From positions 5,975,295 through 6,039,294 of the forward strand of contig JAHRHZ010000049.1 in NCBI GenBank assembly GCA_024137785.1: a stretch of 64,000 bases of DNA, written 5' to 3'. The notes beneath the pieces are model-generated. The model was not told the DNA's origin, made no database searches, and saw nothing but the letters and a program-made list of their open reading frames with translations. The DNA is from Ginglymostoma cirratum (taxonomy: Eukaryota). Shown in pieces: positions 6,117 through 61,363 of the stretch. The position numbers and the translations under genes were made by a program. The first letter of the stretch is position 1. Each line of letters starts with the position of its first letter.

Positions 6117-6619
6117 TAGATGCAGAGATGATAAATAACGGGGCATTGAATTGTTAACAAATTCAATCAGCTTATTGAACTACAATACAAATGGCTGAAA
6201 AATGAACCTTTATCAGCAAGAAAGAATTGGGAGTAATTAAAGAAAGGTAATTAAGTTTGCAAGGAAGAGAAAACTTAACCTTTTTTTTAATAAACTTATT
6301 AGGCATTGGTTGCTGCAGAAATTGAAAATGACGCAAGAAACAAAAATGCCAGGATAGTGCAGGTTTGTTGCTCAACAATTCTTTGATATTTCCTAAAGCC
6401 AATAATAATAACTAAACTATATTGCTTTATTTTCTTCCCCCACAGTTCATTATGTTTAACTGTTTCTGCTATGTCAAAATGCATGCCATATAATTACTTT
6501 GCAATTGGCATTTGTGATAGACTTGGATCCATCATAATCCCTACATTTTGTATTTCATCTGAATGCACCCTTTCTAAAGATTTTAAGATGATAGTTGATA
6601 ATGCAGAATTTGAGTATTG

Positions 6620-15189: not shown

Positions 15190-16025
15190 AGGATAGGTTT
15201 AATATCTATATATAGGTATTCAATGGCATTACCGTCACTAAATTCTCCCACTGTCAACATATTGGAAGGGGGCGTTATCATTGACTAGAGACTCAACTTG
15301 TTTTGCCATATAAACACAGCGGCTACAAGAGCAGGTCAGAAGCTAGGAATACTGTGGTGAGTAACTCACCTCCTGACACCCCAAAGCCTGTCCACCATCT
15401 GAAAGGCACAAGTCAGGAGTGTGATGGAATACTCCCCACTTGCCTGAATGGGTGAAGCTCCAACAACGTTCAAGAAGCTTGACACTGTCCAAGACAAAGT
15501 AGCCCGCTTGATTGGCATCACATTCACAGACATCCACTCCTCCCCTACCAACTCTCAGTAGCAGCATTCTGTACTATTCACTGCATAAATTCACCCAAGA
15601 TCATTAGTCAGCACCTTCCAAGCCCACGATCACTTCCATCAAGAAGGACAAAGGCAGCAGATACATGGGAACACCACTACTTGCAGGTTCCTCTCCAAGC
15701 TACTCACCATCCATTCTTAGGAAGGGTCACTGGACCTGAAACATTAACTCTGATTTTTTCTTCACAGATGCTGCCAGACCTGCTGAGCTTTTCCAGCAAC
15801 TTCTGCCTTTGTACTCACCATCCTGACTTGGAAATGTTGCTGTTTCTTCATTGTCACTGTGTCAGAACCCTGGAACTTCCTCCCTAATGGCATTGTGTGT
15901 CTACCTACAGCACATGGACTACAGCACTTCAGTAAGGAAGCTCACCACCACCTTTTCAAAAATAATTAGGTTTGGCTAATAAATGTTGACCAGCCAGCGA
16001 TGCCTACTTCCCACAAAGGAATAAA
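15190..16025 (+). mobile_element. CR1/L2-group LINE 3' part
   Basis: RT C-terminal-like sequence (aggcacaagtcaggagtgtgatggaatactcccca = KAQVRSVMEYSP) and tail aataaatgttgaccagccagcgatgcc. Confidence 0.8.
15713..15811 (+). mobile_element. PLE-like single arm, family C, with degenerate hammerhead
   Basis: cttaggaagggtcactggacctgaaacatt...agatgctgccagacctgctgagc; 12-bp TSD tactcaccatcc at 15701-15712 and 15812-15823. Confidence 0.8.
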
Positions 16026-17106
16026 AACAAACTTCTGCCACTCGGAGATGTTCAGGTTGTGAAGACTTATGTCTAGGTTTCTCTGTTATGAGTTTTCCCA
16101 GTGACTGCACTTGGACTTCATTGATGGGCAGGACAAGGTCATGCATTCGTCCATCCCTGCTCTTATCTCTTGAAATCTGTTACATTTGTCAATTGCAGTC
16201 TTCCTGTCTGGAATTCATGCTGGTTAGCTCTCCGTTGCTGTTTGTCTACTTCTTTGGTATTTCCATCTTTAATTAAAGACTGGAATTTTTATTTTAGCAC
16301 ATGAACTCAAATTCTGATTTACCTTTTGGTACTCTAATGGTGACTCTAGAAACATAGGAACAGGAGTAGGCCGTGTGGCCTCTCAACCCTGTACCTCCAT
16401 TCAGTGAGATCATGGCTGATCTGTGGCCTCATTCTGTCTGGGGCCCATAACCCTTACTATCATTATTTAACAAAAAAATTTATCTCTTTTTAAAATTAAC
16501 AATTGATCTAGCATCCCCTGCCGTTTGTATAAGAGAGAGTTCCAAACCTCTACCATCCGTTGTGCAGAGAGTGCTTCCTGATATCGCCCCTGAATGATCT
16601 GACTCTATTTTTTAATAAAGACTATGCCCACTGGTTCTAGAGTCCTTATCTTTATTTACCCTGTGCTTTCCTGTTACTGTCTTGCAGACTTTGATCAGAC
16701 AACCCCTTAACCTTCTAAATTCTAGCGAAAACTGGCCTAGTTAGAATAATCTTTCCTGATAACATAAATTCTCAAGTCCAGACATCTTTCTTGTAAGCTT
16801 ATATAGTACTCCCTCCAAGGCCAATGTCCTTCCGAAGGTGTGGTGTCCAGAATTGCTCGCACTACTACAAGGAGGTCTAACCAGTGTTTTGTACAACTGC
16901 AGCTTAACATCTGGGTCTTCATACTCCTGTCTTCTGTACATAAAGACCAGCACTCCATTTGCCTCTTTGATTATTTTCTACACCTATTCGTGACATTTCA
17001 AAGGTCTATGCACCTGAACCCCAACTCTCTTTGAACATATGAGATAACAAGCATGGGGCTGGATGAACACAGCAGGTCAAGCAGCATCACAGGAGCAGGA
17101 AAACTT

Positions 17107-17134
17107 GACGTTTCGGGCCTAAACCCTTCATCAG
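17107..17134 (-). ncRNA. Minimal hammerhead ribozyme, intact core
   Basis: Minus strand CTGATGA-A-GGGT-TTAG-GCCC-GAAAC-GTC. Confidence 0.8.
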
Positions 17135-17591
17135 AAANNNNNNNNNNNNNNNNNNNNNNNNNNNNNNNNNNNNNNNNNNNNNNNNNNNNNNNNNNNNNNN
17201 NNNNNNNNNNNNNNNNNNNNNNNNNNNNNNNNNNNNNNNNNNNNNNNNNNNNNNNNNNNNNNNNNNNNNNNNNNNNNNNNNNNNNNNNNNNNNNNNNNNN
17301 NNNNNNNNNNNNNNNNNNNNNNNNNNNNNNNNNNNNNNNNNNNNNNNNNNNNNNNNNNNNNNNNNNNNNNNNNNNNNNNNNNNNNNNNNNNNNNNNNNNN
17401 NNNNNNNNNNNNNNNNNNNNNNNNNNNNNNNNNNNNNNNNNNNNNNNNNNNNNNNNNNNNNNNNNNNNNNNNNNNNNNNNNNNNNNNNNNNNNNNNNNNN
17501 NNNNNNNNNNNNNNNNNNNNNNNNNNNNNNNNNNNNNCACAGCAGGTCAAGCAGCATCACAGGAGCAGGAAAACTTGACGTTTCAGGCCTT

Positions 17592-17619
17592 CTGATGAAG
17601 GGTTTAGGCCCGAAACGTC
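17592..17619 (+). ncRNA. Minimal hammerhead ribozyme, intact core
   Basis: ctt-CTGATGA-A-GGGT-TTAG-GCCC-GAAAC-GTC-aag; stem I ctt/aag; predicted cleavage after 17619. Confidence 0.8.
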
Positions 17620-17757
17620 AAGTTTTCCTACTCCTGTGATGCTGCTTGACCTGCTGTGTTCATCCAGCCCCATGCTTGTTATCTCAGATTCTCCAGCATC
17701 TGCAGTACCTTTTATCTCTGATACAATTTTAACCCCACTGCGAAGCCTCTTCTAAGG

Positions 17758-18051
17758 ATGCCTACCCTGAAGAAGTTACCCTCCTCCCTCCGGACAAACC
17801 TCAGGGAATCTCTCTCCCACTGCAACTCCCTCATCACCTCTTCGGCCTTGAAACTGCTCGACCACGTCCTGAAGCAAACCAGGTACCACAGCCACATCAC
17901 CTTTCTTAGTACCTGCCTACAGAACCAGATCATCCCCAATGGACTACAATCCACATTCAAGCCTTTCCAATTTGGCCCCAACCGTGACAATATCTACATG
18001 GAGAACATTGAGACCCTCCAGAAGCGCTTCTCCCTGCGACTCCTGAAAAGA
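17758..18051 (+). pseudogene. N-terminal ~98 codons of a Penelope-like element ORF (RT and GIY-YIG absent)
   Basis: ATG-initiated, stop-free MPTLKKLP...HITFLSTCLQNQIIPNGL...; the HxxFLxxCxxxxIIPxGL motif is recalled from PLE N-termini; lies directly downstream of the pLTR. Confidence 0.7.
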
Positions 18052-18055
18052 TTTT

Positions 18056-18083
18056 CTGATGAAGGGTTTAGGCCCAAAACGTC
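18056..18083 (+). ncRNA. Minimal hammerhead, G12A mutant copy
   Basis: CTGATGAAGGGTTTAGGCCC-AAAAC-GTC; G>A at 18076 in a CpG context. Confidence 0.7.
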
Positions 18084-19264
18084 AAGTTTTCCTGCTCCTG
18101 TGATGCTGCTTGACCTGCTGTGTTCATCCAGCCCCATGCTTGTTATCTCAGATTCTCCAGCATCTGCAGTACCTTTTATCTCTCTTTGAACATATGTCCA
18201 CTACCTCAGTCACCTCTTCAAAACATCAATGAGGTTCTTCAGGCATGGCCGACTGTCATGAATTCATGCTGGTATTTGCTAATTAACTGAATTCTCAAGG
18301 TGTTTTATTACCCCTTCCTTGATCATAGAATTCAACAATTTCCCCACCAGAGATGCTAGGCTAACTGATGACTCTGTGTCTAAGGGAACTTTGAGGATTA
18401 TGGTAACGGTGTCTAATGTGCTCCCCTACTTCCTTTAACACCTTTGGATAGAAACCATCAGGTCCTGAGGTTTTGTCGCTCCTTAATTTCCTTTCAAGCA
18501 AGTTGTTCTGTTCAGCTTCAAATACTAGTTATCCTCCTATTCTTCAGTAAATACTGAGGCAAAGTAATTATTTGACACGTATGCCATTTTCCCATGATCA
18601 TTTAATAATATCCCCAGTTGCAGTCTTTGTAAGGCTCTTTCTGATTTCACATCCTATTTTCTTCAGGATCCTGGGATGTAATCTGTCAGATCCTTGCAAT
18701 TTGGTCCTCTTCAGACTCAGAATCTTAACACCTTTCTTTAATTCATTATACCTTTCACCTTGTGTTAATCAACCTCAATTATGCAATTTTCTGTATAATC
18801 CTTTTCAGAAAATGCCAGTGCAAAGTACTCATTAAATCTTCTAGATAATTTGCATTTATCCTTAACTAACTCATCCTCTTCTCTGTGGGCTTAAATTCAC
18901 TTTGAAAAATTGTCTTTCAGCAACTTGTCTAAAATACTTTGTTTTTTTCAATATTTTTATTGTCTAGTGCTCTCTCCTTGTTTGCCTTCTTATTTCTTAT
19001 TTTCTTGTGTCCTCTTACTTATTACATTTGGAAGTCTTGACTGTCCTGATTTAATTTCATATTGTTTCTAATTTTTCCATTTATTCATGGAATTTTGAAG
19101 CTTGATCTAATCTTTTGTAATGGGTGTATATTTTTAATTTGCGTTTTGAGATATTATTGGTGTGCAATTTTGAGTTTCTTTTACCTCAGCTAGCTAATTT
19201 ATCACCATTCTAAAGTCTGACCTATGATAATTTTGTGCCCTTGTTTTTGAACTATCTTCAAAAA

Positions 19265-19955: not shown

Positions 19956-20122
19956 CAAGGCGGGTTCTGTCACAGATGTGTGTTTCATTTCTGACAAATT
20001 ACCATCCACACAGTGATGACAAACATTTCCCCTATATGTTGACCTTGAGTTTGTTCCGCAAGTTGTTATCCCGATTAGATTTTTGGCTTTGACTTTTTCC
20101 ATTTACATTGTGGCTTATGCAG

Positions 20123-20200
20123 GAAATTCAGAATGAGGATGAACAAGCAGAGAACCTGAAACGGACCATGAAAGCCCAAAGACGAAGAAGGAAGAAAATG
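20123..20200 (+). CDS. CC2D2A: CC2D2A exon (EIQNEDEQAENLKRTMKAQRRRRKKM)
   Basis: gcag|GAA...ATG|gtctgt, 78 nt, phase 0-0; resembles recalled human [28 protein letters not shown]. Confidence 0.75.
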
Positions 20201-20449
20201 GTCTGTTTATCCATGTATTGGCATGCACGTTATTTAATCTTTACTTCTGATATTTCTGTTCTCAAGATTTATAGATAAAATTATGTCTACTGTTGTTTTT
20301 CTTAGTTTTAAGCAAAGATATTAAATAAATCACATGGAATCTCTGGTGAGGTTCTGACAAGAGATTGGGAGAATCCCATAGAAAACTTGGTTCATTTACT
20401 TATCAAAATTCTAACCCATTTTGGTGCAACTTCTTCTATTCTGTGGATG

Positions 20450-41557: not shown

Positions 41558-41866
41558 TAGAGATAACACAGTGTTGAGCTGGAGGAACGCAGCAGGCCAG
41601 GCAGCATCAGAGGAGCAGGAAAGTTGACGTTTCGAGTCGGGACAATATGAAGAAGGGTCCCAACCTGAAACGTCAGCTTTCCCGCTCATCTGATGCTGCC
41701 TGACCTGCTGTGTTCTTCCAGCTCCACGCTGTGTTCTTCCAGCTCCACGCTGTNNNNNNNNNNTGTTCTTCCAGCTCCACGCTGTGTTCTTCCAGCTCCA
41801 CGCTGTGTTCCTCCAGCTCCACGCTGTGTTATCTCTGACTCCAGCTTCGGCAGTTCTTACTATCTT
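41558..41866 (+). mobile_element. PLE fold-back element, family B, with internal minisatellite
   Basis: Inverted arms; aTGAAGAAGGGTCCCAACCTGAAACGTC; 11-bp TSD attgtaagatc at 41547-41557 and 41867-41877. Confidence 0.85.
41707..41830 (+). repeat. 21-bp tandem repeat (gctgtgttcttccagctccac), at least 5 units, spanning a 10-N gap
   Basis: Read directly. Confidence 0.9.
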
Positions 41867-42790: not shown

Positions 42791-43359
42791 CAGAGATAAA
42801 AGGTACTGCAGATGCTAGAGAATCCGAGATAACAAGCATGGGGCTGGATGAACACAGCAAGTCAAGCAGCATCATAGGAGCAGGAAAACTTGACGTTTCG
42901 GGCCTAAACCCTTCATCAGAAAGGGNNNNNNNNNNNNNNNNNNNNNNNNNNNNNNNNNNNNNNNNNNNNNNNNNNNNNNNNNNNNNNNNNNNNNNNNNNN
43001 NNNNNNNNNNNNNNNNNNNNNNNNNNNNNNNNNNNNNNNNNNNNNNNNNNNNNNNNNNNNNNNNNNNNNNNNNNNNNNNNNNNNNNNNNNNNNNNNNNNN
43101 NNNNNNNNNNNNNNNNNNNNNNNNNNNNNNNNNNNNNNNNNNNNNNNNNNNNNNNNNNNNNNNNNNNNNNNNNNNNNNNNNNNNNNNNNNNNNNNNNNNN
43201 NNNNNNNNNNNNNNNNNNNNNNNNNNNNNNNNNNNNNNNNNNNNNNNNNNNNNNNNNNNNNNNNNNNNNNNNNNNNNNNNNNNNNNNNNNNNNNNNNNNN
43301 NNNNNNNNNNNNNNNNNNNNNNNNNTGCTGTGTTCATCCAGCCCCATGCTTGTTATCTC
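42791..43359 (-). mobile_element. PLE fold-back element, family A (contains a 400-N gap)
   Basis: Nearly identical to the 17041-18185 pLTR; 14-bp TSD tgtgtgtttggtat at 42777-42790 and 43360-43373. Confidence 0.88.
42892..42919 (-). ncRNA. Minimal hammerhead ribozyme, intact core
   Basis: Minus strand ttt-CTGATGA-A-GGGTTTAGGCCC-GAAAC-GTC-aag. Confidence 0.8.
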
Positions 43360-47397: not shown

Positions 47398-47791
47398 TTT
47401 GTGATGCTGTGTTGAGATGATATTCCAGTTGCTGTTAAATGAAGAGGAACTGAATTTGTAGAACAGTTTCCACTACTGGTACGGCACAACAATGGTTTAA
47501 TATTGATACCGGAAATGATGAAGAAGTGGAGATCATAATGATGAGATTTGTGGTTTTAAGGATTGATGGACTGGTACACATGCCAGTCATGCCTGATTTG
47601 TATTATTTCATACTTAGTCTCTCCTTGCAGAAGAAAAACGTATTCAGATTTTGCAAAAGTATGAGTTTTTGTGTTTGTAGCAAATTTGTCAGCAGCATCA
47701 CTACTTGTCTTTTCAGTTGAAAAATCTGCACATTTCTCAGCATAGCATTGCTGCTGGTTTGTTTAAGTTGATATATTTATGTAATTTACAG

Positions 47792-48010
47792 GATGGGTTT
47801 CCTTCTGCTGAAGAGGCATATAACTTCTTCACCTTCAATTTCGACCCTGAACCTGAAGAAGCAGAGGAAAAGTCAAAAAAGCAGAAACAACTTGAAGCAC
47901 TTAAAAGTATTGACCAGGAAGATGACTTGGAGGATGATGGGGATGGGGAGGAGTCAGCTGTCAGAACGGAAGCGGAAGAAGAAGAAGAAGAAGAAGAAGA
48001 AGAGGGAGAG
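47792..48010 (+). CDS. CC2D2A: CC2D2A exon ([23 protein letters not shown]...[12 protein letters not shown])
   Basis: acag|GAT...GAG|gtaaac, 219 nt; [21 protein letters not shown] is identical to recalled human CC2D2A. Confidence 0.96.
47975..48001 (+). repeat. (GAA)9 coding microsatellite (poly-Glu)
   Basis: Read directly. Confidence 0.95.
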
Positions 48011-60749: not shown

Positions 60750-61363
60750 AGATAACAAAGTGTGGAGCTGGAGGAACACAGCAGGCCAGGCAGCATCAGA
60801 GGAACAAGAANNNNNNNNNNNNNNNNNNNNNNNNNNNNNNNNNNNNNNNNNNNNNNNNNNNNNNNNNNNNNNNNNNNNNNNNNNNNNNNNNNNNNNNNNN
60901 NNNNNNNNNNNNNNNNNNNNNNNNNNNNNNNNNNNNNNNNNNNNNNNNNNNNNNNNNNNNNNNNNNNNNNNNNNNNNNNNNNNNNNNNNNNNNNNNNNNN
61001 NNNNNNNNNNNNNNNNNNNNNNNNNNNNNNNNNNNNNNNNNNNNNNNNNNNNNNNNNNNNNNNNNNNNNNNNNNNNNNNNNNNNNNNNNNNNNNNNNNNN
61101 NNNNNNNNNNNNNNNNNNNNNNNNNNNNNNNNNNNNNNNNNNNNNNNNNNNNNNNNNNNNNNNNNNNNNNNNNNNNNNNNNNNNNNNNNNNNNNNNNNNN
61201 NNNNNNNNNNGCATCAGAGGAACAAGAAAGCTGACATTTTGGGTCGGGATGGTCCCGATCCAAAACATCAGCTTTCCTGTTTCTCTGATGCTGCCTGGCC
61301 TGCTGTGTTCCTCCAGCTCCACATTTTGTTATTTCTGACTCCAGCATCTGCAGTTCTTGCTAT
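60750..61363 (+). mobile_element. PLE fold-back element, family B, hammerhead core lost (contains a 400-N gap)
   Basis: Near-perfect hairpin centred on gggtcgggat/ggtcccgatcc; TSD ttccYgatggaagtag at 60734-60749 and 61364-61379. Confidence 0.85.

Follow-up and report, generated by a model that had tools for sequence, protein, structure and literature searches.

What has been inserted into this intron, how was it made, and does it cut the RNA of its host gene? The DNA that we studied (the window) is a stretch of 64,000 nucleotides (nt) of contig JAHRHZ010000049.1 from Ginglymostoma cirratum. Within an intron of CC2D2A it carries two hammerhead ribozyme motifs, one on each side of the start of an open reading frame (ORF). 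A preliminary description, made from the letters alone, attributed these to a Penelope-like element (PLE) and proposed that the two ribozymes would act as a dimer on the host pre-mRNA. We conclude that the insert is very probably an internally truncated copy of an abundant Neptune-type PLE, likely from one target-primed insertion and likely inert, since the inverted arms that it carries are predicted to sequester its ribozymes. The parent family, the layout of the insert, the target duplication, the recurring junction zone, the failure of junction copies to form one clade, and the CpG site of the change in the second ribozyme are supported directly by the data below. By itself this locus has little weight: there are thousands of such copies, and this one is not expected to cut the host RNA. 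The useful part is a junction pattern at the level of the family: sister copies likely record jumps of the reverse transcriptase (RT) between template sites.

Parent family and layout of the insert

Within the same genome we counted 2260 candidate matches to the ORF stretch, of which the best 40 are 98-100% identical to it; the family is young. We fetched the loci for 31 of these best 40 matches, and they form our pattern-independent sample. The preliminary description had suggested using the ORF to look for a full-length parent with RT and GIY-YIG domains, and there is one in this genome: L032 has an intact ORF of 1053 amino acids with DKG and YIDD motifs, a C-X4-C-X2-C linker, and, at its C terminus, a GIY-YIG domain (PF01541 at residues 937-1014, above the Pfam cut-off). 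The window ORF is 97% identical to it over 97 amino acids. The window copy is not autonomous, as it has only these N-terminal codons and lacks an intact RT and endonuclease. Other near-intact or intact ORFs are those of L021 (968 amino acids) and L023 (1149 amino acids, with gaps), and past about residue 200 the ORFs have a variable repeat rich in Ala, Thr, and Pro.

On motif definitions alone, the parent would be of the Neptune type. A CX2-5CxxC linker between RT and endonuclease defines Neptune (PMC8557442), although Nematis shares a linker too. As in PLEs of the Neptune clade, the motifs run from RT through the C-X4-C-X2-C linker to a GIY-YIG domain with internal cysteines. The family also has the features expected of PLEs with an endonuclease: a single ORF with RT and GIY-YIG, direct and inverted pseudo-long terminal repeats (pLTRs), a minimal hammerhead, a tail of 30-40 nt, and a target-site duplication (TSD). 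The outer 3' ends of its copies cluster at repeat positions 89-102 and 129-142, which gives the tail, and many sister loci have duplications of 10-17 nt.

Searches that started from the window ORF itself found less. It has no match in Pfam, and a protein search with a 98-amino-acid stretch returned only three shark-like gene models, none of them a named PLE. Of these models, one from the zebra shark (P0001) begins with the PLE N-terminal ORF and an acid phosphatase model from the whale shark (P0003) terminates in it; each could be exonisation or an annotation artefact.

On the plus strand, the insert consists of a 17-nt repeat, an inverted pLTR, a 400-N gap, a partial inverted pLTR, pLTR1, 334 nt, pLTR2, and the 17-nt repeat again (Table 1). 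Repeat and motif analysis bears out most of what had been described: the inverted pLTR, the two direct pLTRs and their 464-nt spacing, the intact first ribozyme core, and the G12>A change in the second. The coordinates were also right, but the 400-N gap (35% of the span) and the proximal inverted arm had been left out. The 17-nt direct repeat is indeed present on both sides, but the true TSD is 11-17 bp long, since the element also matches the last 2 nt of the left copy and the first 4 nt of the right copy. Similarly, the ATG at 17758 does open a frame that holds the peptide quoted earlier, but the count of about 98 open codons needs correcting: 97 codons are derived from the parent, while the frame itself runs on through pLTR2 and has 143 open codons before its stop at 18187-18189.

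The two direct repeats are 130 nt long and 98% identical (2 of 130 positions differ). The distal inverted arm is about 34 nt shorter than the direct repeats, which is the tail difference: the arms in the window end at about positions 96 and 130. The proximal inverted arm directly abuts pLTR1 and pairs with it in a hairpin (53 bp, 15-nt loop) that covers the first hammerhead's 3' half. About 1.3 kb upstream, at 15767-15797, a 31-nt match to the interior of the pLTR (81%) is a remnant of an older related PLE repeat.

Table 1. Features of the insert and the nearest coding exons of the host gene (window positions)
Feature	Position	Strand	Remarks
Upstream CC2D2A coding exon	6303..6362	+	tblastn
Left TSD	17025..17041	+	17-nt direct repeat; final 2 nt also fit the inverted arm
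Distal inverted pLTR	17040..17137 (repeat search: 17037-17137)	-	Repeat positions ~97 to -2; intact minus-strand hammerhead core
Assembly gap	17138..17537	.	400 N, a stock size; may hide a mirror arm, or a single arm may be reported twice
Proximal inverted partial pLTR	17538..17590	-	Repeat positions 69 to 17; C>T at the stem II CpG
pLTR1 (direct repeat 1)	17590..17719	+	Repeat search
Minimal hammerhead motif 1	17592..17619	+	Core intact; predicted cut after 17619; consensus of PMC4209133
First 97 codons of the PLE ORF	17758..18048	+	94/97 identical to the full-length 1053-amino-acid copy
Junction	18049..18053	+	Untemplated A, G, then repeat-start ATT with one extra T; at the family junction hot spot
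pLTR2 (direct repeat 2, with tail)	18054..18183	+	Repeat search
Minimal hammerhead motif 2	18056..18083	+	G12>A at 18076, a CpG site; predicted cut after 18083
Right TSD	18180..18196	+	First 4 nt also fit the element
Downstream CC2D2A coding exon	~20114..20206	+	tblastn bounds; the true acceptor lies a few bases in

This layout is close to that of Pen2a/Pen2, in which two direct pLTRs and a shorter inverted pLTR that adjoins the upstream one are bounded by a TSD (PMC3846280; also PMC8557442). The two also share the 30-40 nt tail difference, the existence of an internally incomplete derivative (one Pen2 derivative is internally deleted), and the difficulty that they pose for short-read assembly (PMC3846280; PMC8557442). 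The window copy differs from Pen2a/Pen2 as described in that most of its ORF is gone, that the break lies in a hot spot used across the family, and that an untemplated G stands at the repeat start.

Could the tandem or the inverted arms be artefacts of assembly? There are reasons to ask. Such PLE structures trouble short-read assemblies (PMC8557442), the insert contains a 400-N gap, gaps of this size lie beside inverted repeats at many loci, and one locus (L009) resembles a palindrome that was walked twice. Nevertheless, the junction has its own linker, and the same layouts occur without gaps elsewhere in this genome (L057, L058, L059, L067, and L079). We also compared contigs from sequencing runs of a related organism (about 5% difference at flank positions; shared words at most 0.24), and these contain head-to-head joints of repeats as well as joints from ORF to repeat (in 4 of 4 runs, for example, 17913 is joined to 18052). 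Because these contigs show such joints and the ungapped loci show the same layouts, this class of structure is real. An artefact could plausibly alter only the length of the inverted arm, and we regard it as highly improbable that assembly created the tandem or the arms.

None of the related organism's listed contigs spans the insert or fills the gap. Its contigs end at 17025 (4 of 4 runs, with 44 letters left unaligned) and restart at 18197 (3 of 4 runs, among the pieces listed), which hints at an empty site but is not direct evidence of one. We considered the size of the gap as evidence for a hidden mirror arm of 394 nt and rejected this, as 400 N is a stock size, found for 3 of the 4 gaps in the window and at many loci. 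The other gaps in the window are at 41754-41763, 42926-43325, and 60811-61210; two of them are of 400 N, and they may mark other hairpin insertions.

A recurrent junction and an untemplated G

The window copy is a PLE copy with two direct pLTRs, as the preliminary description had it, but it is neither of the two things offered there. In a textbook partial tandem, a 5'-truncated copy precedes a fuller one. Here there is no 3' untranslated region (UTR) in the assembled sequence before pLTR1, and the ORF is cut at its 3' side: it breaks off after 97 codons, where a new repeat start has been joined to it. It had been suggested to look for other copies with the same junction, and there are many. 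An exact pattern for the junction zone has 38 matches in 36 loci, with differing linkers, while one control anchor 90 nt upstream has none. Both anchors are conserved (in 29 of 31 and 31 of 31 pattern-independent loci), so the junction zone is a hot spot. A second hot spot lies at position 486 (6 loci), and scattered junctions occur up to position 1710. We considered antisense splicing as the cause of the junctions and dropped it, as the linkers vary and the would-be acceptor is kept.

What do the junctions have in common? By a hand count, an untemplated G stands just before the repeat start in 19 of the 36 loci, including the window (21 of the 38 matches); another base is added in 2 loci and none in 15. 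Thus, 19 of 21 added bases are G (p = 8e-8 against 1/3), and neither of the parent sequences could supply a G at the hot spot. Over all such starts, the G is present at 39 of 70, in 56 loci (p = 1e-4 against 1/3), and in the pattern-independent sample at 16 of 31 (p = 0.027). The same start with its G recurs at outer 5' ends and at the centres of inversions, neither of which involves a deletion. Several loci have extra Ts (up to 7 or more) after the starting A, or runs of A before the G, which may reflect start-site slippage and untemplated addition.

Non-native 5' ends cluster at (C)ATTT, which precedes the hammerhead core by 4-8 nt: among the 104 motifs (56 loci), 70 start there, 16 run into the native 3' UTR, 13 start elsewhere, and 5 touch N. 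The native CCATTTC fits the initiator consensus. If we consider segments that start at repeat positions of 200 or less, 98 of 129 align from position 1 (a count that takes in copies running on into the native 3' UTR), and the ribozyme cut at position 31 is the start of just one. At L022:6419 (the L008 locus), a long copy starts exactly at position 31, the predicted hammerhead cut.

The pLTR of Penelope contains the start site (PMC8557442), and untemplated Gs at the full-length 5' ends of LINE-1 and SVA are read as copied caps (PMC4859970). The Gs at our junctions suggest that RT copies the capped 5' end of the element's RNA and then jumps to an internal hot spot. More broadly, and tentatively, since we would put this at somewhat below even, the Neptune family may make its second pLTR by a transfer akin to strong-stop: RT would be primed in the 5' repeat of a capped transcript, copy the cap as an extra base, and jump to a few internal hot spots, at about ORF nt 290 and 317. 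If so, the junction G shows where transcription starts, just upstream of the ribozyme, and the transfer would repeatedly mint short units bounded by two intact hammerheads, which would be a ready route from PLEs to retrozymes. We found no description of cap-derived Gs or of jump hot spots in PLEs in a literature search for which most subscription papers were out of reach.

For the window copy, we picture the following. RT would have primed at the nicked target from about repeat position 130 and copied as far as the capped 5' end, which lies a few bases upstream of the hammerhead. There, opposite the cap, it would have added a base, now the G at 18050. It would then have jumped to the AC-rich site about 290 nt into the ORF, likely of the same RNA, and copied to the 5' end again. 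The inverted arm would have been made next, by fold-back or by priming of the second end at about position 96. Repair would have left the duplication of 11-17 bp, and point changes at CpGs would have come later. One variant is common to all four repeats of the window, is present in 10 of 86 family copies, and is concordant in all 15 of 15 tandem pairs (p = 0.011).

There is a partial precedent in Poseidon, whose RT initiates internally at an AC-rich site in vitro (PMC11167929). Poseidon_Ac and the shark family both have two internal initiation sites that give the tail, an AC-rich site, and copies that keep an uncleaved hammerhead. The initiation sites of Poseidon_Ac lie 111-118 nt into the ORF (PMC11167929), whereas the outer 3' ends of the shark family are upstream of the ATG, and it is the shark family that would have a further internal site, near ORF nt 290, that receives jumps.

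Alternatively, a full-length element might have inserted first and lost most of its ORF later, either by deletion at the DNA level or by a second insertion of a solo repeat. A microhomology-mediated internal deletion is described for a copy of this kind (PMC3846280), and the 15 of 36 junction loci without an added base show C or CA microhomology. Also, the endonuclease is reported to cut ATT close to where ORF and pLTR meet (PMC11167929), and the right breakpoint could be fixed in this way. But later loss does not account for the untemplated G, sometimes after A runs, in 19 of 36 loci, or for the same start and G where there was no deletion. And at L071 the inverted arm has the same junction, so the junction predates the arm. 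We think that later loss is unlikely. (L071 and L072, at G000:C70:16253155-16253881, are a head-to-head pair around a 400-N gap, with an identical junction and linker in both arms.)

The recurrence of the junction raises another possibility: the 464-nt unit might be a non-autonomous, retrozyme-like element that is amplified via ribozyme-cut monomers or circles. Junctions in this one zone are present in at least 36 loci. At G000:C66:26842867-26843358 (L069/L070), two consecutive identical junctions are 464 nt apart. A preprint (10.64898/2026.07.22.740005) derives retrozymes from pLTRs and links those of vertebrates to them. Metazoan non-LTR retrozymes likewise have pLTR-related tandem hammerheads a few hundred nt apart (PMC7229834; 10.64898/2026.07.22.740005). 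However, retrozymes have canonical type I hammerheads, a defined tandem monomer, and expression as circles (PMC7229834), whereas the unit in the window has minimal hammerheads that lack loop 3, a linker that varies by locus, and coding sequence from the ORF. Tandem pairs in the family are spaced anywhere from 427 to 2186 nt apart (15 pairs), the ends of the copies do not match the ribozyme cut site, and there are no long arrays among the fetched loci.

The family tree has 48 rows, 21 of them junction copies (of 56 distinct loci, 8 were dropped as too short), and it rejects a single clade of junction copies (p-AU 1.2e-15), which largely refutes a mini-element. The window copy falls on a starred branch with two long copies. 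It is true that 11 junction copies share one starred branch and that the junction label is clustered beyond shuffles, but that branch is an older subfamily of which only junction copies were sampled. As for L069/L070, both hammerheads carry the same two changes, and the repeat shares a CpG change and is beside a 400-N gap, so this may be a short tandem array, a later duplication, or an assembly loop. A mini-element of this kind seems to us barely credible. One more tandem is worth recording. At L076:1516-1927, ORF positions 279-460 are present twice in tandem, with a third partial copy that also ends at 460, upstream of a pLTR, which suggests repeated jumps to one site or a small circular template.

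Ribozymes and the host RNA

Can the ribozymes cut the host transcript? An Rfam scan at E <= 10 matched no hammerhead family (there were five other weak matches), and we identified the motifs by the published minimal consensus (PMC4209133). They resemble the minimal hammerheads of metazoan PLEs (PMC4209133) in the extra base between 9 and 10.1, the G10.1-C11.1 pair, the palindromic minimal helix III, the short helix I, and their location in the pLTR; the only difference of note is the core change in copy 2. That change, G12>A, is at a CpG formed with the neighbouring base, and G>A and C>T changes there are found in 4 and 5 of 86 family copies. Both cores are intact in 10 of 15 tandem pairs. Because the change is at a CpG and rare in the family, and because most pairs are intact, the asymmetry of the two cores reflects decay and is not a conserved feature.

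The preliminary description proposed that, in a dimer with swapped stems III, the intact first core would cut the CC2D2A pre-mRNA once, after 18083. On paper the geometry is right. The insert lies in sense within the intron, core 1 and the GUC of copy 2 are intact, a three-pair stem I can form, and weak cleavage by dimers of minimal hammerheads is possible (PMC4209133). The C of the stem I "ctt" comes from the inversion junction; the family's native 5' strand of stem I is ATTT. However, the published activity of minimal dimers is low (PMC4209133), and the inverted arms are predicted to sequester both cores. The proximal arm abuts core 1 and is transcribed first. In folding predictions with both arms, the 3' half of each hammerhead is paired to an inverted arm with a probability of about 0.92. 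A forced active dimer fold costs 32.0 kcal/mol with the proximal arm alone and 17.6 kcal/mol without arms; the absolute values ignore core contacts, and it is the difference of 14 kcal/mol that counts (it is far larger with both arms). Even without arms, the cross pairs of the dimer have a probability of at most 0.003.

Sequestration is predicted in either case, with a long mirror arm hidden in the gap or with the same arm reported twice. The description had itself allowed that an inverted arm might sequester the first repeat, and by the folding results this escape clause applies. With the second core lost to CpG decay, we consider it very unlikely that a dimer cuts the pre-mRNA at a level that matters. 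Instead, the insert is likely inert, and cleavage of the host RNA is predicted to be unlikely: the insert would fold into a long hairpin and leave with the intron at splicing, uncut by its ribozymes. For Poseidon, ribozyme cleavage is unnecessary for insertion in vitro and is seen only with protein (PMC11167929).

Several points weigh against our account of this locus, in addition to the 11-copy branch. Pfam found no RT family in the parent ORF, and we assigned RT by eye from the DKG and YIDD motifs. The gap and both inverted arms at this locus rest on the assembly. The cap and the template jump are read only from the sequence of the junctions. In the wider counts, the ORF can template some of the Gs (at position 486), and the palindromic L009 enters twice. 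Although it is AC-rich, the hot spot has no significant structure (z of 0.23 and 0.53), and a stem-loop there is not supported. A second diagnostic site gives no support for a single template (14 of 15 pairs are concordant, as expected by chance). Finally, folding ignores proteins and the order of transcription, and by analogy with Poseidon, whose ribozyme cleaved only with protein, protein-assisted cleavage may be possible.

Host gene and flanking repeats

The assignment of the host gene is straightforward. The best protein matches of an exon at 47783-47995 are shark CC2D2A proteins (92% for whale shark, 88% for zebra shark). The CC2D2A coding exons that tblastn locates with six shark proteins are all plus-strand and lie at 1616, 6303, 20114, 21201, and beyond. 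The insert is thus in sense to the CC2D2A pre-mRNA, as described earlier, in the intron between 6362 and about 20114. Elsewhere in the genome, at G000:C139:36379392-36420378, a second gene has DUF5523 and CC2D2AN-C2 matches, and we presume that it is the CC2D2B paralogue.

The insert sits within an old repeat that resembles a long interspersed nuclear element (LINE), which we take to be CR1-like and which has 952 candidate relatives in this genome. Old LINE-like fragments on the minus strand flank the insert, at 16737-17034 and 18197-18560. We compared 11 old LINE relatives of the left flank as empty sites. They continue for only about 5 nt into the right flank, and 1 of the 11 has a match to that flank at a later point. 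Compared with one relative, L048, the right flank seems to lie after an old deletion of about 800 nt.

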